A program made the position numbers and the translations under genes. A stretch of 64,000 nt of DNA from Psilocybe cubensis (Eukaryota): NCBI GenBank assembly GCA_017499595.2, contig CM039005.1, positions 62,001-126,000 on the forward strand, given 5' to 3'. The stretch's first letter is position 1, and every line of letters starts with the position of its first letter. The notes under the pieces are model-generated. The model ran no database searches. It saw only the letters and a program-made list of their open reading frames with translations, and had not been told where the DNA came from. Shown here piece by piece: positions 17,673 through 46,674 of this stretch.

Positions 17673-17717
17673 CATCATAAAAAGTGCGGGTAGATTACAA
17701 AGCATTGTAAACCCAAT
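17673..17717 (+). repeat. Left terminal inverted repeat of the Plavaka element
   Basis: CATCATAAAAAGTGCGGGTAGATTACAAAGCATTGTAAACCCAAT; aligns to the reverse complement of 47139-47182 with one gap. Confidence 0.85.
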
Positions 17718-20207: not shown

Positions 20208-20509
20208 GGTGGTGGATGGTGGTGGTACGGGAAGAAAAGGGATGAAAAAAACTCCCTTCCGCATATACCGAGCGCAGTGGTTATGTAATGGACACCTGAG
20301 GAGGTACAGATGTCCGCGCTATTCCGCGCCATTGCCATAACTAGCGGGCGAAGGAGGCGCGATCGCAATCGACAGCGAGCTGTCAGAGGATAAAAATAGC
20401 CCACCGCGAATTACCATAGGCAGGAGGTAGCCACCCAAGACGCCCCAGGTATACCCGTGCGTTGAAGCTTGTGGCCAGGGCTTTCGACGACGAGAAGGGG
20501 TGTATACGC

Positions 20510-20945
20510 GCACCGAACGAACCCCCAGGTATCTCCGTGGGTTGAAGGGGGCTGGTAGTCCGTAGCAGCGACAGGAGCACCCTACAGAGTACAGAATTGC
20601 CATAGTCAAGCAGCCGCACCCAACGAACCCTCAGGTATTTCCGTGGGTTGAAGGGTGTGAGCACCGACTTGAGCACCCTACAGAGTACAGAATTGCCATA
20701 GTCAAGCAGCCGCACCCAACGAACCCTCAGGTATTTCCGTGGGTTGAAGGGTGTGAGCACCAACTTGAGCACCCTACAGAGTACAGAATTGCCATAGTCA
20801 AGCAGCCGCACCCAACGAACCCTCAGGTATTTCCGTGGGTTGAAAGGTGTGGGCACCGACTTGAGCAGCCTACAGACTACAGAATCACCGTAGTCAGCAG
20901 ACTGCTACCCAACGAACCCCCAGGTATTTCCGTGGGTTGAAGGGT
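20510..20945. repeat. 96-bp tandem array (3 near-identical units plus degenerate flanking units) between divergent genes A and B
   Basis: Unit CCTACAGAGTACAGAATTGCCATAGTCAAGCAGCCGCACCCAACGAACCCTCAGGTATTTCCGTGGGTTGAAGGG.. starts at 20581, 20677, 20773 and ~20869. Confidence 0.9.
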
Positions 20946-21077
20946 GGTAGTGGTGCGGAAGTCAACAGAGCCAACAAACGGAACCCTACCCAAATTCAGA
21001 TTCTGCCTGATGGCAATTTCAAACTCCGACACACGTGGTGATCTCAACACGTTCCTGCGTCATTGGTTCTTCTTCGC

Positions 21078-21270
21078 TACCCAGGCTCATTGTTCAGGCA
21101 GCCTCACTACCCAGGCTCATTGCTCGGGCAGTACGCGCAACCTACCCAGGCTCATTGCTAGGGCAGAACGCTTAAACTACCCAGGCTCATTGCTTGGGCA
21201 GAACTCATAAACTACCCAGGCTCATTGCTAGGGCAGAACGCTTAAACTACCCAGGCTCATTGCCAGGGCA
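21078..21270 (+). promoter_or_regulatory. Array of six 23-nt stem-loop motifs (core CCAGGCTCATTG) just upstream of gene B
   Basis: Cores at 21081, 21111, 21146, 21181, 21216 and 21251; the array ends 45 nt before ATG 21316. The regulatory role is inferred. Confidence 0.6.
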
Positions 21271-21315
21271 GTACGCACAGATAAATTGGAATTCCTGCTC
21301 CCCTAACTGTCCATA

Positions 21316-24300
21316 ATGCCCCCCGTATGTATCTTACAATATCGAGGTGTATTTGGTTGCTAATTCTACGTACAACAGACTACGCCCTCCTTTGACTGGT
21401 CCCAGGGCTCCGTCTTCCTACAAGACGGTATAATTTACTACTCTCCCAATTGTAACCGACCAGTCCGTATCAAGGCCCCAGAGCGGAATCACCCCCACCC
21501 ATTCCCTGAACGTGCAGAGCCAGATCCCACCTCTGTCAAGCATCCTGTCTGGTGGACAGACACCTTTGGGTGGATGTCCTTCATACCGCTCAACCCATCC
21601 TTTATCTCCGACCCCTTCGACACCTTTACCTGGCAGCCTGAGCTGGATGTAACTCCTAGCTATAATACTCCACCCGGTCCCCACTCTCTACCAGCTCGAA
21701 ATTCATACTATAAAGCATTGGCGGTTTAAGGAACAATGTTTACTGGAAGCTGCGCACAAAATGAAGCTATGGTACCACGTACCAGCCAGTCAACCACCTC
21801 CGCCTTCCATCTTTAAATAGGATGAGCCCTACACATCGAAAGAAGAAGCTTATCGCCAGATTAAATTGGCGCGAGATTGGTTTGCCGTATGGATGGGATT
21901 CTTTGCATATTTCGCTGCGTGTGCAAAGTATGACAAGTATTGTGCAGGAAAGATGGTGAGAGAACAGGGCGAGTTACTACCCCGATGGTATACCAGGCTG
22001 CTCGAGGAGGTTCCGATGCTACAGCAATCCTGGTTGGACAGGCTTTTAACATCGCCAGCGTGTGTATTCTCACCCGACACTCAGCGTGCAGGGATAGTTA
22101 TTCCCTGGTATGAATATGACAATCGGAGGCCCGAGATACAGTTCTTCCTGGACCAGCAGATTCCTGTTTTCTTTCCGTGGTGTGCCATCGCAGAACAGGC
22201 CATCATAAACAACCCCACCCTTCGCTATCTTGAGCCTCCTGCAAACCTTGTTCGGGATGCCCTTGAGAAGTTTCTGAACCGATTCCCCAGTGTTCCTCTC
22301 GCTGGCCTAATCCTTAGGTCCTACTTTCGATTTCATGATTGCCCGCTGCACTCCACCAAACATATATTGAGAATGAAACACAGTACGTCGTTGGTCACGA
22401 AATATATGTATGAAAAATTTGCCTCGCAAACCGACAAGGTCAAGGCGGCTATGGAGGAGAACCAGGTGGAGGCCACGGTTGCAGAATTGAGGGAGATAGT
22501 AAGCCGAGCCATGGACATGGACCTCGCAGAGGCCGAGCGAGCCATAGCAAATCTCCCCACTCACGATTGGATGGACAAAGGTGACTACCACCGGAGAGGA
22601 GAGTTGTACGACCACGTCTCGATATTCTTGGAGAAACGCGAGAGAAACCAGCGCTTTATCATTGCGACTGAGACCGAGGACGCAAAGATCAAAAGGCTTC
22701 AAAGAGAGGAGGCCCTCCCGGGGTACAACACATCGGTCTATAGGTGGAAAAGTGTCACGACGCCGGGGGGGAAGGAATTATACATGCGAGTTCGCCTCCT
22801 TCGATCAAAGCACGAGAGACTGTTCGCAAAGGTGCCTCCCTCTCAACGAACATACAATGCAGTCTCAAACGAGTGGGACATTTTTGATGAAGTGGATTTG
22901 CCACGAAAATATCTGCAATTTGTGGACCCCCCTCCTAGGAAGGACGGTTATATCTACGACTATCCTATCCAAGCCGCCCGCATCAATCCCCAGTCCATCA
23001 TCCCCGACAACGATGTACCCCGTGTGGAATCCGTTCCCGTCATCCCAGAACCCTGTGTAGACTCTTCCTCGGGTGGTGCGACTTCCCCTCATGAACCTCA
23101 GTACGAAACATTCCCCATGGACACGGAGGAATTTTAGGAGAGGCCTTCCCAGCCTCCGGTACATCGTCCAGAGCCGGGCCCCTCCACCATGAATACCGAC
23201 ACTGATGAAGCTTCGAAAATCCATGATTACGATTGGGACACCGCCGACCTCATCTCCAACTTGCGATACAGCTATGGATTCGTAGCCTTTGTAGTCCCGA
23301 AGAAGGAGGATAAGACACCGGAAGGCTGGAAACACGCCTGTCAACACTTTGGGTTTAGGAAGGATGGGGCAGAACAGTTTGTCTCAAACACGGATCGTCA
23401 ACTCATCTGTCAGTTTCATGACGGTTTGATGGGGTCAACTGACCGTCCGCTCCCTCAAGACATTCACGATCTCCACCCGCAAAATTACCTATCCCTTCAA
23501 GTTTTAGGGAATCTCAGCCTCATCCATCGGCCCATCCCAAATCTATTTGTTTTCGCTCATCACGACATATGTGCACCTCAGGAAGAGTCCGACAGAATGT
23601 CTGCTGATTGGAGTATTGGAGTCGAAACCCCAGAGGCTGCTTTATATGTCTTACGAGTCTTCCAGTCCCATCCTGGGCATACAGTTGTCAGTGTGGCACA
23701 CAGACTTTTGTCCAAAGGAGTGCAGTTTCGAACTCTTGTCGGGCGTAAAAATGTGGTTCAGGTGCATCAACCCTACAAGGAAGTTACCTTTTACCGCAAA
23801 GTCAGTTACAAGTTTACCAACGACGACTATGAGTCCTCGATGCTAGCCTGTTGGCAGATACTGGACCAACAACGCGGTCGTGCAGCGCTACTCATGGGTG
23901 GAATAGTAGGACGAATCGCCAAAGAGTATCTGAGCACAGAGTCTGTTCTCCAGGGCCCATCAGTGGAATTGCTGAGAAATGGAGGCGGATATGTCGCTAA
24001 TCTAGAGGCCAAATTGCTGGCTTACTGCGATGACGGGCTTACAGAACACGATATTGCGATTATTATCGGGTCGTATTCTCTCATGACGGGTAAGTGTTCA
24101 CTACATTTAACTGATCGCTCTATTTAATGTCGTTTTTAGATTTTAAAAATCAGGTCGGAGTCAAGTCTTGGTTTCCTCCCCCGGCGGTATGGAATGAAAT
24201 CGACAGGAATGGGATAGGATGGCTGGAATGGACTGAACGCAATGAGTACTGGTACCAGACTAGGCTGGAATTAATTCGAAATGGCAAAGCGCAACCTTTA

Positions 24301-24426
24301 ATGCTTCAAGACTGGAAGAGCCTTCTCAAAAATAAGCCAGTCCGTGTTCTAAGGGAATCAGTGCGAGCTCGATCAGCGGCATTTGTCCATGAACATATCC
24401 CCGTAACCAGGAATCCTTGTAGATAG
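21316..24426 (+). pseudogene. Passenger gene B of the Plavaka element; large hypothetical protein, now disrupted
   Basis: ATG CCC CCC|gtatgt intron, then YYSPNCNRPV, WWTDTFGWMSFIP, ARDWFAVWMGF, RAALLMGGIVGRIA and SWFPPPAVW..WTERNEYWY (motifs recalled from TE-linked Agaricomycete proteins). Probable frameshift near 21680; in-frame TAG at ~21818 and 23135. Confidence 0.72.
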
Positions 24427-24734
24427 GTAGCACATTTTTCTTGTTTCTTCATTCACGGATCTACACCACTACTCACAGTGTATTTTTGCCTTCGTACATA
24501 CTACAAAACAAATTTTATGTATACTATCTATATTTCTTCGTACAAACTATTGGTCAGATATCATGTATACCACGGAAAAAATTGTTTGGAAATTCTGAGC
24601 CCAAAAAACATAAAAAAAACATGAGATTGCTTACAGTAAGCCGGTTAGGCCAATCAAAACTCCACTAAGTTTTGAACTCCGACACCGCGCCCTATCACGC
24701 CTGAGGTTGATGTCTGCACTCTCCTTATTCGCTC

Positions 24735-24839
24735 TACCCAGGCTCATTGCTCGGGTCAGAACGAATCGGTGGCTCGCTATCCAGGCTCATTGCCGGGATA
24801 AGAGCTTCCTATCCACTGTCCAGGCTCATTGCTAGGACA
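24735..24839 (+). promoter_or_regulatory. Stem-loop array upstream of the transposase, left half (split by the copia insertion)
   Basis: CCAGGCTCATTG cores at 24738, 24781 and 24820; continues at 41233-41332 once the copia is removed. Confidence 0.6.
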
Positions 24840-24853
24840 AGGATTTTCTACCC

Positions 24854-25228
24854 TGTTGTAGGGACGTACCAATCCAGGGTACAGCGCCTATCAAAAGCAC
24901 AAGCGGACTTGGCGTCGCTATACGTGCACGGCAGGCGCATCAAGCGCCTGCATCCAAAAAAGGACAGCGAGGATGATCGGGGAGGTCTGCCTCCCCAAAG
25001 GAAATTTTCATCTTTGTTTACTATTATTTCTCAGTGACTGCTTATAACCCCCACTCAGTCTATTCAACCACCTCAGTCGTTTACCATACTGACTGAGGTG
25101 GGCTTTACATTATCTTATCCCATTCAGTATATATTTACTTACATCTTACTACGTACAGTGCCTTGTACAACAGGTAGTCTAGATCAATATTAGTCGTTTA
25201 CCATACTGACTGAGTGCCTTGTACAACA
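24854..25228 (+). repeat. 5' LTR of copia 1
   Basis: TGTTGTAGGGAC..GTACAACA; differs from the reassembled 3' LTR at two positions seen, both CpG>TpG. Confidence 0.95.
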
Positions 25229-28200
25229 GGTTATGGGCCCCGTAGCCTAACGACTTGACACTCGACAAAGCGACTCACCTGAACCCAGACAATCATTGAA
25301 TTCTGACCCCCGATTGCCATACTGCAACCCGACTGGCGTCCTTATTGACGACCCGATCCCAAAAAAATGTCCAGCGCAAATCCGTTTATCTTGCCAGACG
25401 AAGAGAAGTACGACGGCTCCAACTGGATCCAGTTCAAAGCAAAAATCCGTGCTGTAGCCAAACAACGAGGCACCCTCGGTTACCTCGATGGTACCATTCA
25501 AAAACCCAGCCTGGACGACCCAAGTAAACTCGCCACACCAACCACCTACTGGGGAGCCGAAAACCCCACCCTTGACGAATGGAGACAGCGCGATAGCTGG
25601 ACACAGGGCCTAATTACTCTCAACGTCAAGAACGCCATTGGACTAGGCGTGAAGATGGAGGGGACGGCAGCTGAGACATACCGCTCCATAGCAGACGTTA
25701 AAGACGCTACAACGGACCTTGGGTGTATCACTGCTGAAAACGCCCTGAACGAAATCAAGTATGTCGAAGGGTCGAGCATGGAGGACCACATTAGCAAGCT
25801 GAGAACAGCGTGGGCCTACGCCAATGCACAAGGTGCCGACATCAAAGACGCCAAGTTCAGAATGATCGTTCTCCGATCCATGCCAACTAACTGGCTACCG
25901 TTCATTGGATCACTGCACGCCGAAACCACTTCATCCGACGTCATTGCCAGACTCATAGCCCATGCACAATTCATCAAATCTATTCAGCCGCCTTCCATGC
26001 CCACCACACACGCACTCGCAACCCAACACCGTCAGGTCCGTAACCCTCATTTAAAATGTTCCAACCCGGCATGCGGACGTATAGGACACACAATCGAGAA
26101 ATGTTTTAAGGAAGGCGGGGGAATGGCCGGACAGTACCCAGACTGGTGGCGAGGAAGGAAAAGTGGAAATAACGGACCCACGTCAACGGGAGGAGGCGCA
26201 CCAGGAGGCTCAAACAATAAGCAAATTGCAGCAAGTGCGGTAGCACCGGCGGTGACGGACCCAGAATTATTCTACGCATTCTCAGCCATGGCCTTTTCAG
26301 CACACGAGACAGACGATCCATCCATTGAGACATTTGCGGATTCAGCTGCCAGCTCCCACTTCTTCCCTCGTCGCGAGGACTTCACTGACTACCAGGAGAT
26401 CAATATGGAGCCAGGGACGACGGCAAATGGTGGCAATTTTTATATTGCGGGAATCGGAAAGGTCACTAAACATATTGTGTATGAGGGGAAACTGGTTACT
26501 ATCACCTTCGAATCAGCGTATCACACCCCCAACTTATGCCACAATCTCATTTCCATCGGACAATTGCTCAAGCGCGGGTATGAGGTTAGCTTCAAAGGGG
26601 ATCGAGCAGTCTTTATCAACCAAGCCAGCGTACCGTTTATGGAGTCAGAGCCAATGGGCGATGGTTCAATGTTCCGTCTCCACTTCTCCCACACAGTGCT
26701 GGTAAAACAACATGCCTACTCGGCCCGCTCCCTATCTAAACCCACAAACATCGAGCAGTGGCACCGGCGCCTAGGCCACGTATCCGAAGACACTATCCGA
26801 ATGATGACGTCCAAAGAACTGGTGGAAGGACTGACGATAACATCGGAGAAGGCGACTGGGATGTGCGAGGATTGCATATTCGGCAAACAGCACCGCCGCC
26901 CGTTTGACGCTGACGTCGAGCCAGAAACGGAGGCTAACTTGCATGCACACTTTGACACCTGGGGTCCGGCTACGGTGGCCACGCTTGGGGGTAAGAGGTA
27001 TATGCTGGAGGCAGTTGACGGAGGGACGGCATATGTGCAGGTCTTCTTCCTAGAGAACAAGGAAGCAACAAACACCCTGAAATGCCTTGACACGTACCAG
27101 AAACGGGGTGAGCGAATCACTGGGAACAAGCTGGTATTCGTACGCACCGACAACGGCACCGAATTCAAGAATCAACTATGGGAAGAGTATACGAGAGACC
27201 AAGGGATTACTCACGAGTTTATACCAACTTACTCCTCGGCCGCTAACGGTGTCGCTGAACGAGGGCATCGTACCATCCTGGATCGGGTACGTACCATGTT
27301 GCATGATGGTGGACTCGATGGGAGGTTCTGGGGGGAAGCAGCTGCGACTGCTGTTTACTGCAAGAACTTACAGCCGTCAGCCAGACACCCTGGTCCCACG
27401 CCGTCAGAACGATGGCACGGCAAGAAGCCCGATGTCAGCCACCTTCGCCCGTTTGGGTGTGTGGCATACGCAAAGATCCCTGATGCCATCAACTCGGGAA
27501 AATTGGCACCGCGGTCCATCAAATGTGTTCTGCTTGGCTATGCTGGAGTTGGAGAATACTGATTGCTCGACAAGGAAACAGGGCGTATATTCACGTCCCG
27601 GGACGTGATATTTGAGGAAGGAACTCCCCATCGTACCACCAGCACCACCGACGACGACGATGATATCGATATCAACTTCGGTGGCCCATCAGAACCAGAA
27701 GAACCAGAACTTGACAACCCGAACGGCACACACCATGAGAAATCCGAGGACATTGCTTCTACTCCAACACCATCCTTACAACCCTCAGTGCTCGTCGATG
27801 AACAGGCCACTCCTACAGGCACGGTTACTGCGGCTGCTGGGTCTGAGGAGGGGACTGTGACGACGCCGACAGCCAACGACCAACCAAAGACCTCGCGCCC
27901 ACGAATCAAGTACCCACCTGCGTCAAGATCATCCGCTAGGCTCAGGTCCATCAATACAGACCAGTCACCACCTTCCATTGACGACGGTACTGGCAACTCC
28001 TCTATGCCAGGGGAACTTGCAATGGCCAGCCAGGCGGCTGACGACGAGACGTGGGTGCCAACATCATATAAGCAGGCGGCGCAGCGACTGGACTTATGGG
28101 GGCCAGCTATGGACGCAGAGATGGAGATGATGCGACGCATGGGCGTCTGGAGACTGACTGAGCGGCCCAAGGGTGCTAGGGTCATGGGTACAACATGGAC

Positions 28201-29606
28201 ATTTGCAGTCAAACTGGACTCCGACACGGGCGCGGTAATCAAACGCAAAGCGCGAATGGTGGGTCAGGGCTATACACTTGTGCCAGGGGTACACATTGCA
28301 GAATGCCATGCAGCCTCCGTGCGGAATGAATCCCTACGCGCGAATATAGCGGTTGGAGTCGTTAGAAGAATGTTCATATGGCAGGCCGACTACACAAGCG
28401 CATACCTGAATGCTCCAAACAAAATAAAGATCCTTATGGAACAACCTGAAGGATACAAGGTCACGTCGCTCTGTGGTTACATCCCATGTCCTGACAAGGT
28501 CCAGATCCCAAATCCTTATGGGCCGGTTTACGAAGTCACCGCGTATGTCCCCGCTGGAGGAGAAGTTCACAAGGTCGTGGACAACCCAGGTTACTCCGCA
28601 CCGGCAGACGCTGAGGACAAGCTCGACCTCGTCGCAGTACTAGACAAGAGCCTCTATGGAGTTGGGGACAGCGGACGGAACTGGTTCAAGACCCTCCACA
28701 AGTCAATGTCCAAACTTGGTTACTACCAATCCCGAGCAGACCAATGCGTTAGGGCAAGGGTAATCAATGACGAACTAACCATTACCTGCACCTACACCGA
28801 CGACGTTACAGGTATGAGTGACACCGAAGAAGGATATAGGAAGGCGGTGGAGGAACTGGGAAAGGACTTTGAATTGAAGGATTTGGGGGAGCTGAAGAGC
28901 GTGATAGGGTTGGACATCAAGAGGGACTGGGACAACAATGCCATCACCATCTCGCAGGAAGCATACATCAAACGATTCCTGAAGAAGTACGGTTTTGACG
29001 AGGCGAAGCCCAAATACACTCCCTTACCTCCGGGAATCGTTCTCCTACGCAGCCAGTCACCAAGCACCGACGATGAGCGACAATTCATGAAGGACAAACC
29101 GTACCGCGAGATTCTGGGATCCATCATGTATGCCCAGATGGGAACGAGGCCTGACCTATCCCATGCCGTAGCCTCGCTCTCGCGATTCGCATCCGACCCG
29201 GGTGTGGAACATTGGAAAGCACTTACTCATGTATTACGCTACCTGCGGGCCACATCGCACTTCAAGCTTCGCTATGGAGGACCGAACGTCAACTCCTTCA
29301 CTCCCTCAATATACGTCGACGCTGATTATGCAGGAGATTCCGAGAAACGGCGATCTATGGACGGGTACATTGCTATGCAGGCGGGCGGACCAACATTGTG
29401 GAGTGCTAAGTACCAACACACAGTTGCAACATCAACCACGGAGGCGGAATACATGGCGCAATCGAGGGGTGCCCAACAACTTATGTGGATGTACTCATCC
29501 CTGGACGAGATCGGTCTCCAACAACCCCGACCCGCGCAGATGTACGGAGATAATCAATTGGCTTGCCACATTGCGAACAGCAGCACGGGAACATCGAAGG
29601 TCAAAC

Positions 29607-32600: not shown

Positions 32601-34241
32601 TGGCCAAAACGACGATGCCATTGATCCCAGGTGAGTTTTGGCGAGACGTAGTTGACCTGTTCCCCTGAATTAAGCTGAGCGCGAGCGTGAAGAATATACA
32701 TCTGACCGCGTTTCGACCCTTTTCCAATAACCTTATCCTTCGCATCCATCAAAAGAACCTTCCCATTCTTAAACGACGAGCTCCTCCCATCCCTCTCAAA
32801 CCTTCCGAGCGACATCAAAGCATTTTCGGCTTCAGGGATGTGTAAAACGTCTTTCAAACGATGAGTAATCGTCTGCCCGTCGACATCGAAGTTGAGGATG
32901 ACTGTTCCGCGGCCTGCAATGATAGCTGGACTCTTTCCGACACCACGAACGGAGGAATTAACGAGTGGCATATACTCGATGAAGGCTTCACGGACGGGAC
33001 AAACGTGACTGGTGGTTGCAGAATCGTAAAGCCAGTCGTAACGAGAAAAGTTCGACGTCGAGTACGTGTGGTACGCAACCTCATCGTTGAGCGTAGTGTT
33101 GACGTCCTCCCGAGCCTGATTCGTCCGCCCTCTATTCTTCGTCTTCCGCCCCCTCGGACCCTTTCCTTCACGACCTCCGCCCTTCGCCCAGCAATCCTTC
33201 GAAATGTGCCCCATCTTGTTGCAATTATAGCACTCCTTCCCGCCGCTGCCATCCCTCGAACCATTACCCTTTCCATCCGACGACCCTTGACCTCCACGAA
33301 CTTGAAGCGTAGTCCCTCCGGCACCATCACCTCCACGCTCCTTCCGACGACGAGCTTCTTCAAGAAGAACACCAACGAGCTCCTGCGAAGTGAGAGTAGG
33401 TCGGTTCCCACTCGAGCCCAAGAAAGATGACGCATAGTTCTCCCAAGATTCCGGCAGCGAGGTGAGCAAGATCATGACGAAATCTTTGTCCGAAACAATG
33501 CTGCCCATGATGTGCAGCTCCTCCTGGAATTGACGTAGCTTTGCGATATGCTCTGCCATGTCGCATCCCTCCTCTGCGGTTGCCCGGAAAAGTGCTCGTC
33601 GTGTCGCCAAAACACCAAGTCGTCCCTTGGATTCCTTCACTGTGCACAACTGCGTCCACATCTCGCGTGCCGTGCGCGCTCCCAGGACGTGTACCATTTC
33701 CGCATCGCTTAACGCGAGTTCGATCCTGCATCGCGCTTTCGCATCTCCCTTATCCCACGCTGTCTGAGCTGCGATTTCTTCCGCCGTGGGTGCGTTCGGT
33801 TTCGCTGATCCTGGTCGAAGCGACGTGCCGTCCACGTATTTCTCCAGTCCGAGGTCCACCAGTACTGCTAGCATGCACCGCTTCCACGGCATCCAATTGT
33901 GGGCCTTCAGTGTGTCGATGCGATATCCGCCGATGTTGACTTCCGCGGTTGTCGAGTCGGCCATTTGACTTCAAGTGCGAGTTTAGATATAGATCGATAA
34001 GAATAGAACGAGTTTAAAAACAAAGCAAGCTTTAGTTATGACCTTTCGGGGCCCATAACCTGTTGTAAGGATAGTGCGCAGTGGTGGTAAAAGGTATCAA
34101 TGTTCACGACATAACTATACACCTGTACCTACAGTAGCTACGGAACCTGTAATAGAATGATCTAGAAAAATATGATAAGATAACTACAATAGAAAGATAA
34201 TGACTTAGCGACGAAGTCGCTCGCCGACTATCATTCCAACA
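29607..34241 (-). mobile_element. Ty1/copia LTR retrotransposon 2, inserted antisense into the RNase H of copia 1
   Basis: 181-bp LTRs at 29607-29787 and 34061-34241 (2 G/A differences seen), TSD CAAAC (29602-06, 34242-46), PBS GGTTATGGGCCC (minus, 34049-60), PPT AAGGGGGAG. Confidence 0.97.
29795..33964 (-). CDS. Copia 2 gag-pol polyprotein, 1389 aa, open frame
   Basis: CYNCNKMGHISKDC, YDSATTSH, WHRRFGH..CEAC, DNGKE..NGVAER, KARLV, SLYGLKQAG, WVDD, DADWA, KHIDIAFHF, ADIFTKAL. Confidence 0.96.
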   Translation of the reverse strand: MADSTTAEVNIGGYRIDTLKAHNWMPWKRCMLAVLVDLGLEKYVDGTSLRPGSAKPNAPTAEEIAAQTAWDKGDAKARCRIELALSDAEMVHVLGARTAREMWTQLCTVKESKGRLGVLATRRALFRATAEEGCDMAEHIAKLRQFQEELHIMGSIVSDKDFVMILLTSLPESWENYASSFLGSSGNRPTLTSQELVGVLLEEARRRKERGGDGAGGTTLQVRGGQGSSDGKGNGSRDGSGGKECYNCNKMGHISKDCWAKGGGREGKGPRGRKTKNRGRTNQAREDVNTTLNDEVAYHTYSTSNFSRYDWLYDSATTSHVCPVREAFIEYMPLVNSSVRGVGKSPAIIAGRGTVILNFDVDGQTITHRLKDVLHIPEAENALMSLGRFERDGRSSSFKNGKVLLMDAKDKVIGKGSKRGQMYILHARAQLNSGEQVNYVSPKLTWDQWHRRFGHISVSSLQKLVRNDLVVGLSVDETSIPSPSCEACIQAKQTHNPFPGEAENRSTVPGERTMSDIWGPIGTRSVNGFYYYITFMDDAKRYNGVVFLKDKKEAAKAIENHGERVKRRFGQYPRYIRMDNGKELVNERIKKWAAERGIEIETTAPYSPSQNGVAERYNRTLLELARAMIIAKNLPLFLWDEAVNYANYLRNRAPTRALDDKTPYEGWHNKKPDVSHLREFGCDVWVLDETKGLSKLKPRSKKKVFVGFNEGSKSVRYYDPKSRTVKSSRNVSFNENETPQNVEIPGLLSEGERNESTDVKSSENEPETVKNEPISSTAPIPQPSIRRSAREHNFIDYKKANNPNARLPTTRSQTTPNAPQIATKSTETSSAKSTATEQANIVKEQLWGAILDDSERVFAMRESDVPRTLEEALESCEAAAWKAAMDEEIETLLRMGTWEMMKIPDGRKLVGCRWVYAKKRDENGNVIKYKARLVVQGCSQRPGTDYSKDGTFAPVMRFDTLRSLLAYSAVHNLKMRQFDIKGAYLHGYISEEIYMVQPPGYDDGTGQECRLIRSLYGLKQAGNVWNHELDNALTSFGFTKLKSDYCCYIRRAENGDFTILVTWVDDIISFSTNDSLNDQLERELGSKFDVKSMGQPSMMLGFKLEQKDHYISLSQAHYIDKLLEKFGLQDANPVSTPMDPNVRLDKDEGVREDGDGQGEVNSRLGFSYATVIGSLMYLALGTRPDIAFAVYKLAQFTSKPKSTHWTAVKRIFRYLKGTRNHKLTYGGDLQVLDVNLNVYCDADWAENYDRKSTSGYVVTIAGGAVAWSSKKQNTVALSTAEAEYVSTTHAAKQVLWHHSLFTELGFHIPSTSTIFTDNTAAISIAHHPEFHARTKHIDIAFHFLCDLVEKKTLDTVYINTSNNLADIFTKALPRVAHDGFILQLGVLAD

Positions 34242-34915
34242 CAAACACATCGATATACGGTCACACTACGTTCGGGAATGGGTCGAAGAAGGCGACATAC
34301 GAATCGACTACATTCCTAGCGAAGAGAACTTAGCCGACCTCCTAACAAAACCATTGGGAAGATCACTCCACTGGAAATTCTGTGCTGCCATGCGTCTATG
34401 CGACCCGAGCGATCCACTTATCCGCCGTACTGAGGATTAGTCCGTCGGGGGAGTGTTGTAGGGACTGTCAGGGCAACACTATAATCAGTGTGACAAGGCC
34501 ACCAACAAAGATTAAGCAAGAGAGAGAAAGAGAGAGCAGAGGGAGAGTAAGAGAGCAAAGAGAGAATAAGAGAGTGAGAGAGATTCAATGGTTCTAAGAG
34601 ATCACACCAATGATAGTGGATATCCTAAGAGATTGAAGCTGAAGCTACAGCTACCTACAAGTCCAGTATTTATACTCTACAGCTATTCTAGAATATTCCC
34701 TACATTACATCATAAAGGAAGGTTAAAGAATAAAAGTGACATCATATAGAAAAAGGATGAGTAAGACTAGGAATCATATAGAATTTACTAGAAAGAAGTG
34801 GAGCAAGAAGGCTGTGATGAAAGAAATAAACTATCTAATCAGATAATTGATAAGATAATGAAAGAATAAGATAATTCTGTGAAGATAAAGAGGGGAAACT
34901 GGAGAAACCCTGACA

Positions 34916-37900
34916 TCACCCCCTCTCTAAGGCACATTTTCCACAATGTGCACATGGATGGGTTAGTTTAGAGGGTTTAAGAAGAGGAGGAGGTTCAGTA
35001 AAGTTAATAATAGGAGTGAAAGAAAGTCTATCAAAGGTCACAGCAGAAATCCTTCTAGGTGCTGAAGGATGTTTGGCATGGAAGTCCTTGATAGCCTTAG
35101 AAGCATTTTTCAAATGCTCTGCAGGCTCCCAAGTGCATTCTTCATTAGGATAGTTCTTCCACTTGACCAAATATTGAAGTTTGTTTCTAAAAAGTCTGCT
35201 GTCCTTGATAAATTCAACTTCCCACTCAGGATTTTCTCCTTGAATGACAGGAGGTGGTCTAGAAGGAGGCTTTCTTCCTACAATATCTGGGTGATAAGGT
35301 AGAAGTTTAACCACATTGAACACTGGATGGATTTTTATGGTAGATGGCAGCTTAAGCTCATAGGCATTAGGGCTAATAACTTTGGTAATTTTGTAAGGCC
35401 CATATCTTTTATCATCCAATTTCTTGGAGGGCCTATCAGTTTTGAGGTCCTTGCCATCTAACCATACCAAATCCCCAACTTTGTACTGAGTTGGAGTACC
35501 TCTGTGTCTATTATAGAATTTAGCCATGTCATCAGAAGCTTTTCTAAGTGCAGACTCTGCTTCTTTCCTGGCTTCTTCCATATTTTTCACAAAGGTATCC
35601 ACAGTGTCCATTTTACTATCTCTAAGGGGTTCAGTGCCCATTCTGGGATGTCTGCCATTATTGAGCATGAATGGTGTCTGCCTGGTTGAAGCCTGAACTC
35701 TATTGTTATAAGAGAATTCAGCTAGAGCTAACCATTCAACCCAATCATCTTGTCTATGGTTTATAAAGAGTCTAAGATACTGCTCAATTTCTTGGTTAAC
35801 TCTTTCAGTCTGACCATCAGTTTGGGGATGGTAGGCTGTAGATGAGGCTGTCTGGATACCAAGTATTGAGTTGAGTTCTTTCATAAACCTTGAGACAAAC
35901 TGTGGACCTCTATCACACAGAATTTTAATGGGTAAGCCATGGTGTTTCCAGACATAATCTCTGTATAGTCTGGCTGTCCCTTCAGAAGTGACTTCATCTG
36001 TAGTAGGGATAATGTGGATCATTTTACTAAGTCTATCCACAACCACCATAATAGCATTATACCCTTGACATTCTGGTAACCCCATAATAAAGTCCACAGA
36101 GATGCATTGCCAGACATCAGAGGGAATCTCAGTAGGAATTAAAAGGCCAAGAGGTTTGGCTGGAAAGGTTTTGGTTCTGTTGCATCTATCACAACCTCTG
36201 GTATAGGCTGCAATAAAATGTGACATTCCTGGCCACCAATAATTCCTAGAGACTAGCTCAATTGTCTTCCATTTCCCTGGATGTCCAGCAATGAAGGCAT
36301 CATGGTGCAGTTCCACAATCTTTCTTCTAAGATCTTTGTCCTTGGGAACATACACCTTCCCCCTGTAGAGAATAAGGCCTTGTTCTTCTGACCATTCCTG
36401 TCCTTCAATCTTCTTGGTAGAAGATTTCTTGAGCTCCTGAACTGCCTTGACCACCTTTTCATCCATCTCCTTAGCTTCTCTAATCTTCTTAAGAAGATCA
36501 TTTTCTGCACCAGTAATGGTAGCATGACCCTGCTTGAGAGCCTGGATTTTAAAGTAGGAAGGTTTGAGGAGAACTACATTTTGGTTATCATTCTCTCCCT
36601 TTTTATGATCTGGTCTCCTAGACAAAGCATCTGGCTTAAGAGATCTTTTACCAGGCCTATGATGAAGAGTAAAATCAAATCTGGACAGGAAGAGTGACCA
36701 TCTGGCTTGCCTTCTGCTGAGCTTTTGGGCAACCATAAAGTACTCTAAGTTTTTGTGGTCTGTCCAAATCTCAAAGGAATGTTGGGTTCCTTCAAGATAA
36801 TGTCTCCATTCATCTAGTGCTCTGATAATAGCCAGCATCTCTTTGTCATGGATCTCATAATTCCTTTCTACTTCAGATAGACTCTTAGACATAAAGGCTA
36901 CAGGATGCCATTTCCCATCTGATCCTTCCTGAGATAAAACAGCCCCAGTAGCATAATCTGAACTGTCTGCTTCAACTTTATATGGCTTGTTATCATCAGG
37001 GAAAATCAAGACAGGTGAAGAAGTGACTTTCTTCTTTAACTGGTCAAAGGCTTCCTGCTGTCTAAGACTCCATCTCCAGACTGTTCCTTTCTTTGTCAAT
37101 TCATGAAGGGGCTTAGCAATGTCTGCAAAATCCTCTATGAACCTTCTATAAAAATTAACAAATCCCAAGAATGATTGGACATCCTTGACATTTTCAGGTT
37201 CAGGCCATTTAGAAACTCCCTCTACCTTGACAGGATCCATCTCAATCCTGCCTTGTGAAATGATTAGTCCAAGATATTCAATCTTTTCCTTTTCAAATTC
37301 ACATTTCTCTGCTTTAAGGTAGAGTTTGTTCTGTTCTAAGATTTGCAGAACTTGCTTGACTACCTCTCTATGATGATCAAGAGTCTCAGTGAAAATTAAA
37401 ATGTCATCCATGTAGACAATGACAACATTTCCATCAATGAGCTCAATAAAGATATCATTCATCATAGTTTGGAAGGTAGCAGGACTATTGGTTAAACCAA
37501 AGAACATGACCAATGGTTCAAACAGCCCTCTATTGGTTCTAAAGGCTGCTTTCCATTCATCTCCCTTTTTGATTCTGACATTGTTAAATCCCCACCTAAC
37601 ATCAAGTTTGGTGAAGTATTTGGCTTTGCTGAGTTTGGTGATGATGTCAGAAATCAATGGAAGGGGGTAGGAGTTCTTGATGGTCATTTCATTCAGTTTC
37701 CTATAGTCCTGGACAAGCCTAAGAGATCCATCCTTCTTCTTGACAAAGAATACAGGGGAGGCCATAGGTGACTTGGAGGGTCTAATCCTGCCAGACTTCA
37801 GATTTTCCTCTAAAAAGGCATCAAGTTCCTTTTGTTCATTGGGAGAAAGAGGATAAATCTTGGATCTGTAAGGTTCAGAACCAGGTTTCAGCTCAATAGC

Positions 37901-38785
37901 ATGATCCCAAGGCTTTCTGTCTGGTAGCCTATCAAAAGATTCCTTTGAAAAAACACCTTTAAACTGATGATAGTGCTTAGGAACAGTTTCTTCAAAGGTT
38001 TTCTTAGGGGAATCAGCTTGCTGATGAGACTCTTCTGCTAATCTTTGAGACATAGTAGAAGTAGCATTAATAGACTGCTTCTGAGGATGAAGGTATGAGA
38101 TAAAAATTCTATCCTCAGGCTCAATCTCAGAATCAGAAGAATCTTCAATAGAATCATCTTCTTCTTCATCAAATTGAGGGAGTTTCCTCCTTTTGACTGC
38201 AGCTATTCTCTGCCTCTTTCTTCTGGCTCTTTTGGCTTCCATTTGGCAGTCAGAGGGACATCTAATAAACTGGACATCCCCTGTCTTCCAATCAACATCT
38301 GGATTATGGTGCCAAAGCCAAGTATGTCCAATGATAGCAGATTTGTCTCCCAAGTCACAAACAGCAAAGGTGGCCCTTTCTGTATGGTTTTTGTGTACCA
38401 TAATTAAGTCTACTTCCTCATGGATAGAGCCACTCTTGTTGAGAGTACCATCAACATTATAGACTGGAATGGCTCTAGGAAGTTTCCTTGTGTTGAGATT
38501 ATGATACTTCACAAAACCAGAATGCAGAAAGAGGCCAGTAGCTCCAGAATCAAGCAAAGCATCAACAGATAACCTTTTCTCTGTGTCCATTGTCTTTAAG
38601 ATGACAGACAAATGGGTAGAGGTTTTAGGATTATGGTTGAGGATGTAGATCTTTTCAGGGAAGGTAGAAAGAGAGGAAGAAGAAGACATGATTTCTGCAC
38701 CAGAATCTGAAGACTGAGGATCAAGTCTGTCAATTTCATTTTCTAGTACATTAAATCTATTCCATTGGGACATGTCTTTCACCAA
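34916..38785 (-). CDS. pol: Gypsy Pol (PR-RT-RNaseH-IN-chromodomain), probably expressed by -1 frameshift from gag
   Basis: LLDSGAT, YMDDILI, DSSDYATGAVL, H..H..CDRC Zn finger, DRGPQF..GQTER, GPY motif, chromodomain EWEVEFI..YLVKWKNYPNEECTWEP. Confidence 0.96.
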   Translation of the reverse strand: MVKDMSQWNRFNVLENEIDRLDPQSSDSGAEIMSSSSSLSTFPEKIYILNHNPKTSTHLSVILKTMDTEKRLSVDALLDSGATGLFLHSGFVKYHNLNTRKLPRAIPVYNVDGTLNKSGSIHEEVDLIMVHKNHTERATFAVCDLGDKSAIIGHTWLWHHNPDVDWKTGDVQFIRCPSDCQMEAKRARRKRQRIAAVKRRKLPQFDEEEDDSIEDSSDSEIEPEDRIFISYLHPQKQSINATSTMSQRLAEESHQQADSPKKTFEETVPKHYHQFKGVFSKESFDRLPDRKPWDHAIELKPGSEPYRSKIYPLSPNEQKELDAFLEENLKSGRIRPSKSPMASPVFFVKKKDGSLRLVQDYRKLNEMTIKNSYPLPLISDIITKLSKAKYFTKLDVRWGFNNVRIKKGDEWKAAFRTNRGLFEPLVMFFGLTNSPATFQTMMNDIFIELIDGNVVIVYMDDILIFTETLDHHREVVKQVLQILEQNKLYLKAEKCEFEKEKIEYLGLIISQGRIEMDPVKVEGVSKWPEPENVKDVQSFLGFVNFYRRFIEDFADIAKPLHELTKKGTVWRWSLRQQEAFDQLKKKVTSSPVLIFPDDNKPYKVEADSSDYATGAVLSQEGSDGKWHPVAFMSKSLSEVERNYEIHDKEMLAIIRALDEWRHYLEGTQHSFEIWTDHKNLEYFMVAQKLSRRQARWSLFLSRFDFTLHHRPGKRSLKPDALSRRPDHKKGENDNQNVVLLKPSYFKIQALKQGHATITGAENDLLKKIREAKEMDEKVVKAVQELKKSSTKKIEGQEWSEEQGLILYRGKVYVPKDKDLRRKIVELHHDAFIAGHPGKWKTIELVSRNYWWPGMSHFIAAYTRGCDRCNRTKTFPAKPLGLLIPTEIPSDVWQCISVDFIMGLPECQGYNAIMVVVDRLSKMIHIIPTTDEVTSEGTARLYRDYVWKHHGLPIKILCDRGPQFVSRFMKELNSILGIQTASSTAYHPQTDGQTERVNQEIEQYLRLFINHRQDDWVEWLALAEFSYNNRVQASTRQTPFMLNNGRHPRMGTEPLRDSKMDTVDTFVKNMEEARKEAESALRKASDDMAKFYNRHRGTPTQYKVGDLVWLDGKDLKTDRPSKKLDDKRYGPYKITKVISPNAYELKLPSTIKIHPVFNVVKLLPYHPDIVGRKPPSRPPPVIQGENPEWEVEFIKDSRLFRNKLQYLVKWKNYPNEECTWEPAEHLKNASKAIKDFHAKHPSAPRRISAVTFDRLSFTPIINFTEPPPLLKPSKLTHPCAHCGKCALERG

Positions 38786-38793
38786 TGGTGCTT

Positions 38794-39903
38794 CTAAAAA
38801 TTTTTCTTTTCCTCATCTTTCTGCTCCTTGCCTTCCAAGATTAATTTCCCAAAGTAGTCAGCCAGTTCTTCATGGGTCATAGCATTGATGTTAACTGATG
38901 ACCTGCAGTTTACAGCCTTATGACCAGGCTTTCTGCACTTGAAGCAAACAATTGGCCTAACTGACTTCCATCCAGAGTCAACCTCCATGGGAACTACATC
39001 TGGTTGCTTTGCCTGAGCACCAAAGGTCCTTGAGCTGCTGTTGGAAAAGACTGGAGGATTTGGAGTAGGCTTAGGAACAGCCTTGGGAGTTGGGGCTTTA
39101 AGGAAGGGAGAAGAAGAGGAGGAGGAAAGAGACTTGGTAAAGGCCTCACTCTGTCTCCACTGCCTATCTAGCCTAGTACTCCATTTAATCCATCCATCCA
39201 AGGTTTTGGGCATGTCAGGAACATAGTAGACTGCATTCCTAAGATTTTCATTAAGCCCAGCCTTGAATTGGTCTACCAAAGCAGCATCATTATACCCAGT
39301 ATCTGAGATCAGAGCCCTGAAGCTAGCAACATACTCATCAGCAGTCTGTCTGCCTTGCTTGAGCATGTGCATTTTATGCTTAGCTGTGTTGGAGGGGTCT
39401 GGATCTGCAAACACTTCCCTAAATTCATAAACAAAGTCAGCCCAAAGACCTTCTTGGGACTGAGCATTGTCTATTACTTTAGTCTTCTCATATGCCCACT
39501 TCCCAGCAGTACCTCCTTTCATATGAGATAGAGCACAAATAACTTTCTGAAAGTCATCTGTAATCCCTTTCCCATAGAAATATAATTTAAGCTGACTGAG
39601 GAAGTTTTCTGCCTTCTCCATAGAACCATCAAATGGATCTGGAGGTGAAACTTTAATGGCAGAGTGTGAACAGGAAGGGGCAACATGAGGGGTAGGGAAA
39701 GAGTGAATATCTAGAGCAGCAGGTGGTGGTGGTGGTGGTGGTGATGGTGACTGACTGACTGGTTGCTGAGGGTGTGGTGGAGTGGATAATGACTGCTGCT
39801 GCTGTCTAAGAAAATTCAACTCTTGGGTAAGGAGCTGGACCTGATGCATGAGCTTTTCCACAGAAGGAGTGGTGGGAGGCAATTGGGAGGGGTCCATGTC
39901 CAT
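38794..39903 (-). CDS. gag: Gypsy Gag, 369 aa
   Basis: PDPFDG, LKQG..ADEY, PMEVD and Zn knuckle CFKCRKPGHKAVNC; ends A AAT TTT TAG. Confidence 0.94.
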   Translation of the reverse strand: MDMDPSQLPPTTPSVEKLMHQVQLLTQELNFLRQQQQSLSTPPHPQQPVSQSPSPPPPPPPAALDIHSFPTPHVAPSCSHSAIKVSPPDPFDGSMEKAENFLSQLKLYFYGKGITDDFQKVICALSHMKGGTAGKWAYEKTKVIDNAQSQEGLWADFVYEFREVFADPDPSNTAKHKMHMLKQGRQTADEYVASFRALISDTGYNDAALVDQFKAGLNENLRNAVYYVPDMPKTLDGWIKWSTRLDRQWRQSEAFTKSLSSSSSSPFLKAPTPKAVPKPTPNPPVFSNSSSRTFGAQAKQPDVVPMEVDSGWKSVRPIVCFKCRKPGHKAVNCRSSVNINAMTHEELADYFGKLILEGKEQKDEEKKNF

Positions 39904-40394
39904 GGGTAGGGGTAGGTAGGCTCTCTGATGTGTGTGTGGGAGAAGCTATCTACTGAAAGTGCCCTTGAAACTATACTAAGTATTCTAAAAAAATATCTAT
40001 CTACTGGATACCCAGTTGTCACACCACTCAGGGCTCTAAACCTAGGATCACAGGGTTACTGGATATTTCCTAGACCACCAAAAACAGAACACTAGTAGGA
40101 CTGTGTCTGCCCCAACAGTTGGTATCCCTATCTACTAAGTTCACACACAGCACACAACAGAGAGTAGGAAAGATGATGAGCCAAAAGTCTTGAGGAAAGG
40201 TCTTGAGGAAAGGTTTTGAGGAGGATGTTGAAGATTGGTGGAGATGTAGAGATTGGTAAGAAGATTGGTGAAGAGGTTGATGAAGAGGTTGGTGGGTTGG
40301 AAGTGGAGGAAGAAGGTTGAGGTGATGGTGTTGAAGAGGTTGAAGAGGTGAAGAGTTTGGTGTTGAAAGAGAGATGGTGGAGTTGTCTTGAGAG

Positions 40395-40405
40395 AGCTTC
40401 AATCT
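40395..40405 (-). other. Self-priming PBS of the gypsy element
   Basis: Sense AGATTGAAGCT, 2 nt after the 5' LTR, is complementary to sense AGCTTCAATCT in the LTR (40572-40582), which starts 27 nt downstream of TATAAATA (40609-16). Confidence 0.8.
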
Positions 40406-41232
40406 TCTGTCAGGGCAACACTATAATCAGTGTGACAAGGCCACCAACAAAGATTAAGCAAGAGAGAGAAAGAGAGAGCAGAGGGAGAGTAAGAGAGCAA
40501 AGAGAGAATAAGAGAGTGAGAGAGATTCAATGGTTCTAAGAGATCACACCAATGATAGTGGATATCCTAAGAGATTGAAGCTGAAGCTACAGCTACCTAC
40601 AAGTCCAGTATTTATACTCTACAGCTATTCTAGAATATTCCCTACATTACATCATAAAGGAAGGTTAAAGAATAAAAGTGACATCATATAGAAAAAGGAT
40701 GAGTAAGACTAGGAATCATATAGAATTTACTAGAAAGAAGTGGAGCAAGAAGGCTGTGATGAAAGAAATAAACTATCTAATCAGATAATTGATAAGATAA
40801 TGAAAGAATAAGATAATTCTGTGAAGATAAAGAGGGGAAACTGGAGAAACCCTGACAGGGACGTACCAATCCAGGGTACAGCGCCTATCAAAAGCACAAG
40901 CGGACTTGGCGTCGCTATATGTGCACGGCAGGCGCATCAAGCGCCTGCATCCAAAAAAGGACAGTGAGGATGATCGGGGAGGTCTGCCTCCCCAAAGGAA
41001 ATTTTCATCTTTGTTTACTATTATTTCTCAGTGACTGCTTATAACCCCCACTCAGTCTATTCAACCACCTCAGTCGTTTACCATACTGACTGAGGTGGGC
41101 TTTACATTATCTTATCCCATTCAGTATATATTTACTTACATCTTACTACGTACAGTGCCTTGTACAACAGGTAGTCTAGATCAATATTAGTCGTTTACCA
41201 TACTGACTGAGTGCCTTGTACAACATACCCCC

Positions 41233-41332
41233 TATCCAGGCTCATTGCTGGGATAAGGGTGTCGTTCGCCTGCCCAGGCTCATTGCTTGGGCAAGGATTT
41301 TCTACTCCCTATCCAGGCTCATTGCGTGGATA
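41233..41332 (+). promoter_or_regulatory. Stem-loop array upstream of the transposase, right half
   Basis: Cores at 41236, 41274 and 41313; ends 24 nt before ATG 41357. Confidence 0.6.
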
Positions 41333-41356
41333 GTTGTACTTCAGCAGGCCGTAATT

Positions 41357-44300: not shown

Positions 44301-45528
44301 CCGCACTAACCGTGTCGAGATACGCAAGCTGCTGCGTGAGGACAGGGAGTTACTGGAGCCCACTCCTCCTGATTTACATTATCACATCTCATCAGACGTG
44401 CGTCGAAAGTTAGATATACTACCCTGGATGTCACAAAACCAAAACGATCTGGCAACAAGGGTAAGCCGGATTTTTTGCTTGTTTTTATATACTCAATGTC
44501 GTATTTAGGACTTTATGCTTCGTCTCAAAACTCACCTTTATGCCCGCTTATCAGGGGTAAACGAATTCAGTGATAGCATTGGTACCCATGAGCGACTCCA
44601 AATCACAATACTCGATGACCGAATTTACAAACATCAGGTTCTACGCATCAACTATACTTCGTATGATATGCGTCAAATACAAGATACCTTGAAGCCAAAC
44701 TCTTCCCGATGTGACATCATGGTACTTGCTAGCAACAAAGGTGCAGATCAGCAGGTTCATCCTTATTGGTATGCCCGTATCATTGGAATCTACCACGCCA
44801 ATGTGGTAATATCTACCCCTGATGATTACTACCGTGCCTCCAAGCACAAAGTGGATTTTCTTCATGTCCGATGGCTGGGTGTTTGTGAAGATTGCCATTA
44901 CGGTTGGAAATATAGAAGGCTTCCACAGTTGGCGTTTGGTGATATCAATGACTCTGCGTCGTTTGGTTTTGTGGACCCATCCCTCGTAATTCGTGCAACC
45001 CATTTGATCCCTCGCTTCATTCTTGGAAAAATACCGACTCTCGGCCCATCTGTAGCTTATAGAAGCAAAGAAAATAATGAAGGGGAAGAATGGGAGAGAT
45101 ATTATGTCAATTTGTGAGTACATTTAGTCACTTCTTACCCTTTACTAATTTTTTACAGTTTTGTGGATCGCGACATGGTCATGCTGTACAGAGGGGGTGG
45201 AGTTGGCCACGCTAGCACGCGAGCCGCTACCGATTCTCTTAGGCAAGACCGACGTGCAGACGACATTGCCTCTCGCAAAAAATGCCGCGAGGCACATGAA
45301 GCTCCCGATCCTGATCTGGAACCAGATGGGGCCTCAGACCAGGAGCAAGACGCTCAGGACCAGGCTGAAGTGGCACCTGAAAACAGCGCCGATTCTGATG
45401 ACAATGAAGACGACAGCGACCAGCATACCGATTCTGAAGAGGAGGAGGAGGAGGAGGAGGAGGAGGAGGAAAGCAACGAGGATGAGGTCCGGGGTGACCT
45501 AGATGAACTCAGGTTCGCTGAATACTAA
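41357..45528 (+). pseudogene. Plavaka-family transposase (multi-exon) with a nonsense mutation
   Basis: N-terminal CxxC..H..C finger; SDSTHLTSFGDASIWP, NQSKYTR, DYPEK, CPRC, VDFMHEVELGVWK, KLAARDFEDLLQ, TYKLHSLPDY..FGTTD..STQMGESEH, RINYTSYD, YWYARIIGIYHANV, FGFVDP..IRATHLIP; acidic tail. WHALAKL*LHTD has TGA at 43879 (expected CGA). Confidence 0.9.
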
Positions 45529-46611: not shown

Positions 46612-46674
46612 TTCCAGTCTTCGGTGATCTCGTTATATGATGGTGACGAGTTGCTGGCGCGCTGTGGCGGGTTT

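Follow-up and report, generated by a model that had tools for sequence, protein, structure and literature searches.

A DNA transposon of the PlavakaB type in the fungus Psilocybe cubensis carries twelve copies of a 25-nt hairpin-forming unit, arranged as two arrays of six ahead of its two forward-strand genes, gene B and the Plavaka transposase. The element lies in a stretch of 64,000 nt (contig CM039005.1 of assembly GCA_017499595.2, positions 62,001 to 126,000 of the forward strand), which is referred to below as the window and in which all positions are counted. Judging by their sequences, the units appear to be selectively maintained, the cores being conserved while the spacers between them drift. 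As far as our literature search reached, this hairpin-repeat module is undescribed. We tentatively favour the reading that the units are protein-binding stem-loops in transcribed 5′ leaders and co-regulate gene B and the transposase, and hold it with somewhat less than even confidence. The parts of the module are the following, the exact matches to the core CCAGGCTCATTG being given by their start positions.

21017..21032, + strand: conserved upstream box TTTCAAACTCCGACAC, 60 nt ahead of array 1
21077..21271, + strand: array 1, six 25-nt hairpin units starting at 21077, 21107, 21142, 21177, 21212 and 21247
21081, 21111, 21146, 21181, 21216 and 21251, + strand: exact cores of array 1, the last ending at 21262
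21316..24426, + strand: gene B, placed in family PF28437 by the database's precomputed label
24670..24685, + strand: conserved upstream box TTTTGAACTCCGACAC, 64 nt ahead of array 2
24734..24842, + strand: array 2, left half, three units starting at 24734, 24777 and 24816
24738, 24781 and 24820, + strand: exact cores of the left half, the last ending at 24831
41232..41333, + strand: array 2, right half, three units starting at 41232, 41270 and 41309
41236, 41274 and 41313, + strand: exact cores of the right half, the last ending at 41324
41357..45525, + strand: Plavaka transposase, several exons, beginning MSDEKRPCLGC...

A motif search of both strands of the window returned 12 exact matches to CCAGGCTCATTG, every one of them on the + strand. 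With up to two mismatches allowed, 19 matches were found against 5.94 expected from shuffles, and none of 100 shuffles reached 19; the seven inexact matches are dispersed and at chance level. The initial annotation had reported twelve copies of a 23-nt stem-loop, six and six in one orientation. Number, grouping and orientation are borne out, and its array coordinates agree with the measured spans to 1-3 nt; the motif stands too, with the full unit now measured as 25 nt. The alignment of the 12 units gives CTRYCCAGGC-TCATT-GCYNGGRYAG, with 15 columns invariant throughout. A covariance model built from the 12 units and run unfiltered over both strands of the window recovers all of them at 35.5-44.2 bits each. 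All non-unit matches score 13.9 bits or less, the top few being the reverse strands of the units themselves, and no further or diverged unit was detected in the window, where the best match elsewhere has 11.9 bits (E 0.4). Within the 64-kb window the hairpin units are specific to the transposon. A motif scattered independently of the element, which the initial annotation had named as an outcome that would speak against its proposal, is not what the covariance model finds in the window.

The unit periods are 30/35/35/35/35 in array 1, for which Tandem Repeats Finder (TRF) gives a period of 35 and 5.9 copies, and 43/39/39/38/39 in array 2 with the insertion removed; the arrays measure 195 nt and, joined, 223 nt, respectively. 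Array 1 ends 44 nt ahead of the gene B start codon at 21316 and array 2 ends 23 nt ahead of the transposase start codon at 41357, so that six units do stand ahead of each plus-strand gene, as had been proposed.

All units but the degenerate c1 adopt the same fold, in which an outer helix is followed by an unpaired A7 and by an inner helix of three pairs, capped by the five-base loop TCATT, which is invariant in 12/12 units. The fold energies range from -7 to -17 kcal/mol as RNA (c1, -2.6, excluded) and from -2.4 to -8.3 kcal/mol as DNA (c1, -0.5, excluded). The arm variants TATCC/GGATA, TGTCC/GGACA, TGCCC/GGGCA and TACCC/GGGT(c)A were all found. In array 2 they follow one another as TACCC/GGGTcA, TATCC/GGATA and TGTCC/GGACA in the left half and as TATCC/GGATA, TGCCC/GGGCA and TATCC/GGATA in the right half. 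Among the 11 distinct rows of the alignment, pair 4-22 is CG in seven, UA in four and unpaired in none. Pair 3-23 is AU in four and GC in two, and the five rows in which it is unpaired are the array-1 rows, with A.C. In array 2 both pairs are Watson-Crick in 6/6 units and all four combinations are present. When the 3′ dinucleotides of array 2 were permuted, this degree of pairing was reached in 6/720 orders, or 1/24 if each arm type is counted once. The covariation score of the 12 units is 0.178 versus 0.120 for shuffles, with 0/500 shuffles as high, a caveat being that relatedness by itself can lift sequences above their shuffles even when no structure is present. Paired cells make up 80.9% of the 12-unit alignment in the real register versus 22-46% in slid registers. 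The covariation announced by the initial annotation is therefore present in the sense that four arm variants occur and two stem pairs are compensatory, and its strength, at 1/24 to 6/720 permutations, is lower than that annotation's title had suggested.

One double change can be followed within the array. Units c9 and c11 arose by duplication of a 77-nt stretch holding two units and have the spacer AGGATTTTCTAC in common. They differ by a change from T-A to C-G; the shared spacer together with the double change points to a compensatory event after the duplication. The flanks of the array-2 units add helices of unrelated sequence (ATTCG/CGAAT, GGCTC/GAGCT, ATCC/GGAT and TACCC/GGGTG), and in a permutation of these flanks the observed stability was reached in 22/720 orders.

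Conservation is concentrated in the cores. Compared pairwise, the 25-nt cores of array 2 are on average 0.83 identical and the spacers 0.49; the corresponding values for array 1 (c2-c6) are 0.96 and 0.68. The array-2 units vary only at columns 3, 4, 18, 19, 22, 23, 24 and 25, 17/25 columns being invariant; the variation falls on the two covarying pairs, on the 3′ edge and on the two positions that face G8 and A7. All 12 units share the inner 5′ strand CCAGGC, and its partner GCYNGG is variable. Column 18 is a pyrimidine in 11/12 units and can thus pair with the invariant G8 as G-C or G.U.

The two arrays also share their setting. The box consensus TTTYRAACTCCGACAC is common to both, 60 and 64 nt upstream, and its core, the exact 11-mer AACTCCGACAC, occurs in the window only in the two boxes, with the second copy at 24675. 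Within TTTYRAACTCCGACAC there is CCGACAC, which we take to be the start of the maize TnpA 12-bp motif and which may be a coincidence. On the + strand, ATG is absent from the 303 nt that precede the gene B start and from the 267 nt that precede the transposase start. ATG-free gaps of at least 250 nt amount to 10/1000 in the window, a figure inflated by repeats, so that the support is moderate. On the opposite strand there is an ATG inside every unit. Since the periods are not multiples of three throughout and the frame leading to the transposase has a stop within array 2, the arrays are considered non-coding; a reading of them as coding repeats was rejected on these grounds, together with the lack of an ATG. 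The start codons of gene B and the transposase are supported by agreement with the N-termini of homologues. For gene B, the annotated Psilocybe cubensis protein P0001, 99% identical over a 438-aa gene B query, begins MPPTTPSFDW, and the Pholiota protein P0006, 31% identical, begins MPSAIEFDW. The core, the shared box and the distances to the ATG, taken with the drifted spacers and the compensatory pairs, fit a duplicated cis-regulatory module. The arrays mark the location of the transposon's promoters and leaders, which is useful for annotation. Of the element-specific cis-regulatory module put forward in the initial annotation, what has been sustained so far is the specificity, the two six-unit arrays 5′ of start codons, the shared 11-mer, the drifting spacers and the compensatory pairs.

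In our working model, the duplicated element-specific module would consist of the upstream box, about 60 nt, six stem-loop units, a further 23-44 nt and the ATG. Each RNA unit would form an outer helix from U2-A24 to C6-G20, an unpaired A7, an inner helix of G8.U18, G9-C17 and C10-G16, and the loop UCAUU. The invariant 5′ strand with the loop, CCAGGCUCAUUGC, might be what an RNA-binding protein specific for both sequence and structure recognises, and six copies would give avidity to such a protein. With the last hairpin close to the AUG, the bound protein could gate scanning, stability or export, and gene B and the transposase would be made together. We favour this reading because of the compensatory changes, the asymmetric conservation and the pyrimidine rule at G8, and also because of the sense orientation beside start codons, the ATG-free leaders and the greater stability of the fold as RNA.

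Several points weigh against stem-loops in leaders. Transcription of the arrays is suggested by position alone, and protein binding, the identity of the binder and the direction of the effect are all things that we infer. Pfam, PDB sequence, atlas and fold searches revealed no RNA-binding domain in any element protein, and the known regulators of related transposons act on DNA, not RNA (bioRxiv 10.64898/2026.08.24.746577). Array 1 folds no better than its shuffles on the + strand (z -0.01; -2.2 on the - strand). Joined array 2 folds with z of -5.1 on the + strand and -6.1 on the - strand, at -108.4 and -109.6 kcal/mol, respectively. The more stable strand is the + strand in 6/6 array-2 units and the - strand in 5/6 array-1 units, i.e., there is no net preference. 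At pair 3-23, the + strand of all six array-1 units has A.C, a mismatch that would read as G.U on the other strand. A single locus, four arm types and duplication-related units underlie the covariation, and its statistics are modest. The two closest annotated Psilocybe cubensis transposase models begin at a downstream Met, window residue 35, that is, 34 residues down, so the exact start rests on distant homologues and not on the closest annotation. The transposase of the window has a C2HC zinc finger in its first ~30 residues, and the distant homologues from Agrocybe, Bondarzewia and Athelia have a Cys-x2-Cys...His-x4-Cys finger in the same part.

The main rival reading, which we regard as a real possibility and as less probable than the favoured one, is that the arrays work as duplex DNA. 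The units would then form a double-stranded operator or upstream activating sequence (UAS) cluster, each bound by a sequence-specific DNA-binding protein, with both promoters switched together; candidate binders would be the N-terminal zinc finger of the transposase, another element protein or a host factor. Such an arrangement would account for the absent strand preference in folding. It has a precedent in TnpA of Spm, which binds a short cognate motif where this is densely clustered and activates the element genes; transposases themselves are sequence-specific regulators, as in Mutator (bioRxiv 10.64898/2026.08.24.746577 for both). Plavaka belongs to the same broad clade, CMCT, as EnSpm (PMC12730594). 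The conserved C2HC finger of the transposase, the shape of the unit (a near-dyad of 10+10 bp, as is common for dimeric DNA binders) and the shared upstream 11-mer, which indicates that a whole promoter region was duplicated, all fit. The invariant 5′ inner strand with its variable 3′ partner, however, is at odds with a symmetric dimer on duplex DNA, for which equal half-sites are predicted, CCAGGC and its mirror GCYNGG being anything but equal in conservation. A monomer on a 13-nt core would leave the compensatory outer arms and the extra flank helices unexplained. The subterminal repeats, where transposase sites are expected, carry another motif, TTTACAA/TTGTAAA; transcription starting downstream of the arrays would leave leaders of at most 23 and at most 44 nt; and, by simple arithmetic, units spaced 35-43 bp apart are not separated by an integral number of helical turns.

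We consider it unlikely that the arrays are neutral minisatellites, in which a hairpin-prone unit was expanded by slippage in a duplicated promoter region and the covariation arose when template switching within the inverted repeat corrected the quasi-palindrome, and not through selection. It is well established that such switching in short inverted repeats can produce paired mutations. Array 1 looks young and nearly uniform (core identity 0.96, period 35 nt), array 2 holds the recent 77-nt two-unit duplication, the transposon has other tandem repeats (20432-20957 and 45939-46082), and this copy is dead, with an in-frame stop in gene B and array 2 split by the LTR nest. Yet neutral repeats should decay evenly, whereas the array-2 spacers have fallen to 0.49 identity with 17/25 core columns invariant. 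One core heads two different genes at the same distance to the shared box and the ATG, and quasi-palindrome correction should also have mended A7/N19 and G8/Y18, which are still imperfect. A role in RNA processing, by alternative leader splicing or by cutting with a structure-specific nuclease, seems to us very improbable. It would draw on a pyrimidine run followed by CAG|G, given as CTAYCCAG|G and resembling a 3′ acceptor, in 12/12 units, on the donor-like CA|GTACGC after units c2 and c6 in the array-1 spacers, and on the confirmed 54-nt gene B intron just downstream (21325-21378); but the putative acceptors have no branch-point consensus, array 2 has no donor-like site, and splice signals need no paired arms.

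Returning to stem-loops in leaders, we also considered a narrower form of this reading, which strikes us as improbable in its details. The leader stem-loops would be read by a protein of the element itself, i.e., the product of gene A (DUF6698), gene B (PF28437 family) or the transposase, which would set the joint protein dose post-transcriptionally, and a 96-bp hairpin repeat upstream of array 1 would serve as a second tier. We know of no description of a circuit of the Tat/TAR or IRP/IRE kind in DNA transposons. Gene B offered few clues in this respect: it has no Pfam match in the local library, which lacks PF28437, no PDB sequence match and no atlas lead (best score 0.75), and it is not similar to the transposase. 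AlphaFold gives it a confident model (predicted local distance difference test, pLDDT, 80.4; predicted template modelling score, pTM, 0.77), which has no fold match in PDB (best E 0.74).

The 96-bp repeat is the following feature.

20432..20957, + strand: 96-bp tandem repeat, directly upstream of array 1

TRF reports 4.0 copies with a 93% match at 20564-20946, and two more diverged copies lie to the left. The 96-bp unit folds as a two-tier hairpin, CACCC..AACCC-YCAGGTATTTCCGT-GGGTT..GGGTG, at -20 to -21.6 kcal/mol (z about -2 to -2.5). There is no Met in either open frame across the repeat, and the + strand is here free of ATG for 697 nt, the longest such gap in the window. The repeat may be part of the same control region as array 1. 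Its layout, CYACCC .. AACCC-YCAGGTATTTCC-GGGTT .. GGGTG, loosely resembles the 25-nt unit. A Pfam match to Pertussis_S2S3 (24.7 bits, cut-off 27) on a frame across the repeat was discarded as spurious, the frame having no Met and being derived from the repeat.

Among known systems, two invite comparison. The TnpA clusters of En/Spm (CACTA) elements are similar in that a short element-specific motif is densely packed beside the element's own genes, within the same broad clade CMCT, and the density is found here as well, all 12 units of the 64 kb being packed into two arrays. The Spm motif clusters are needed for self-regulation, according to bioRxiv 10.64898/2026.08.24.746577. The En/Spm clusters are subterminal at both ends and act as duplex DNA, whereas the arrays described here are internal, starting 3,404 and 7,061 nt from the left end of the transposon. 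Spm clusters occur in both orientations, and here 12/12 units lie on the + strand. Also unlike the En/Spm clusters, the arrays form hairpins, have compensatory arms and are duplicated ahead of two genes. The iron-responsive element (IRE) of ferritin and transferrin-receptor transcripts, HIV TAR and the phage MS2 operator are protein-binding RNA stem-loops with a conserved loop and a covarying stem. The units share with them an invariant loop and one unpaired purine, with a stem that keeps its pairing and not its sequence; this combination of conserved loop and compensatory stem is present here at modest strength (6/720 or 1/24). A further likeness is the presence of several copies in one, here putative, untranslated region near the start codon, where a bound protein can block scanning. 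The host is different, namely a cut-and-paste DNA transposon, for which, to our knowledge, no RNA operator of this kind is known. A search of Rfam 15 gave no match over either array at E values up to 1, in agreement with the earlier remark that the motif was not recognised from any described family. By analogy, the arrays would come closest to TnpA-type clusters or protein-binding RNA operators, and they belong to neither.

Tandem promoter or leader monomers, such as the mouse L1 monomers and LTR enhancer repeats, are 70-200 bp long, contain sites for host factors and have no hairpin covariation. The arrays are like the L1 monomers in being tandem units directly upstream of reading frames with a copy number that can be changed by slippage; they differ in that the units are 25 nt in periods of 35-43 nt. 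The dyad consensus of a Gal4-type fungal UAS is CGG-N-CCG. The invariant arms CC..GG contain no such CGG/CCG dyad, and CCGGG occurs only in unit c8.

The module does not seem to have been noticed in published work. The one study found that characterises complete Plavaka elements covers only their ends and proteins, and its main text has no occurrence of hairpin, stem-loop, subterminal, tandem repeat or internal arrays (PMC12730594). No description of the motif was found in the literature searched with 10-12-mers, and the matches listed concern unrelated subjects, among them HIV Gag and human genes; the literature on transposase, tandem stem-loops and leader likewise yielded nothing related. 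Relatives were sought in bacterial and archaeal DNA as two cores 18-34 nt apart. Six loci were obtained, and the four inspected proved unrelated: they are a microsatellite with a 12-mer unit and further simple tandem repeats, in none of which the hairpin unit occurs. Two chance look-alikes among them are a perfect microsatellite of CCAGGCTCATTG with about 9 copies in a Steroidobacteraceae metagenome-assembled genome (MAG; L001 3001-3103) and CCAGGCTCATTG inside a 36-nt tandem repeat in a Lachnospiraceae MAG (L004 3001-3120).

Plavaka elements are abundant in mushroom-forming fungi, and a shared, selectable 25-nt module ahead of both forward genes gives a concrete handle on Plavaka gene control. 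If the units act as RNA, structure-based autoregulation would extend from retroelements and viruses to DNA transposons. If they act as DNA, the principle of TnpA or transposase motif clusters seen in plant Spm and Mutator would reach a fungal clade, with an internal layout.

The host element, its remaining gene and the insertions nested in it are the following.

17673..47182, + strand: PlavakaB transposon, 29,510 nt, or 13,133 nt without the LTR nest
18085..20207, - strand: gene A (DUF6698), divergent from gene B
24854..41225, no strand assigned: nested long terminal repeat (LTR) retrotransposons, a copia element carrying a second copia and a Ty3-type element

PlavakaB is defined by the termini CATCA..TGATG and a 2-3-bp target duplication (PMC12730594). 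The transposon begins with CATCA (17673-17677), ends with TGATG (47178-47182) and is flanked by a TA duplication at 17671-72 and 47183-84. The stretch 62586-63936 aligns with 17315-17676 and then jumps to 47183 (through 48443), in direct order and with 84-88% identity, and the paralogous empty site at 62944-62949 carries a single TA. The empty site indicates that the ~29.5 kb are an insertion with exactly the ends given. An imperfect 23-nt inverted repeat lies at 17690-17712 and 47144-47166. The two 300-nt ends of the transposon are enriched in TTACAA/TTGTAA (8 occurrences), which is found in the 23-nt inverted repeat and in further copies. The arrays were also considered as subterminal repeats, and this was rejected, the ends carrying TTTACAA/TTGTAAA and no hairpin unit. 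The supplement of PMC12730594 lists PlavakaB-1_PsiCub with a stated length of 13,577 nt. The first ~400 nt of the PlavakaB-1_PsiCub consensus match the left end of the transposon, and by this sequence match the transposon is assigned to that catalogued family. CCAGGCTCATTG has 0 matches within the first ~400 nt of each Plavaka consensus in the same supplement (the arrays start 3,404 nt in).

The transposase domain PF18759 was detected with an E value of 2.9e-11 and 43.6 bits (cut-off 26.3), which identifies a Plavaka transposase, and it is carried by all 45 transposase homologues found. The transposases of Agrocybe, Pholiota and other Agaricales are 35-45% identical to it. Gene B starts with an exon of three codons (21316-21324), followed by the 54-nt intron at 21325-21378, with GTATGT..GCTAAT (branch site)..CAG, and by exon 2 from 21379. 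The in-frame stop of this copy is at 23135-23137. The gene B family is large and uncharacterised, with 1176 representatives at E values of 0.001 or less. Gene A has no hairpin array of this type, as judged by the covariance-model scan of the window.

The LTR nest separates unit 3 of array 2 from unit 4, having been inserted into the spacer between them; its LTRs end at 25228 and 41225, and a 5-bp duplication TACCC flanks it at 24849-24853 and 41226-41230. The initial annotation was thus right that the second cluster had been split by a copia element. The LTRs of the outer copia reach to 25228 and begin at about 40851, respectively. The second copia is on the minus strand, with LTRs at 29603-29788 and 34057-34242, and the Ty3-type element has identical 300-nt repeats at 34465 and 40407, which suggests that its insertion was recent.

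A further tandem repeat, at 45939-46082 in the right-hand part of the transposon, has periods of 21/27 nt; it is rich in the palindromes GCGCATGCGC and ACGCGT and is adjoined by a (GGT)n tract at 46655-46735. Beyond the Plavaka transposase frame, the two copia elements and the Ty3-type element, the window contains NACHT-ankyrin genes. These NLR-type genes are part of a large inverted duplication (6200-12056 and 56602-62473, 76-93% complementary), which has a 99-bp ankyrin-repeat periodicity and brackets the entire transposon-rich region. Outside the Plavaka element, inverted-repeat pairs occur at 50203-50282/52618-52699 and 51798-51844/53900-53946, and 60-nt palindromic units GTGGGAATATCCTGCGTACAGTGTACGCAGGATATTCCCAC are repeated at 53884-54082; from their sequences, the repeats in 50203-54082 resemble the termini of further small DNA transposons or of foldback elements.

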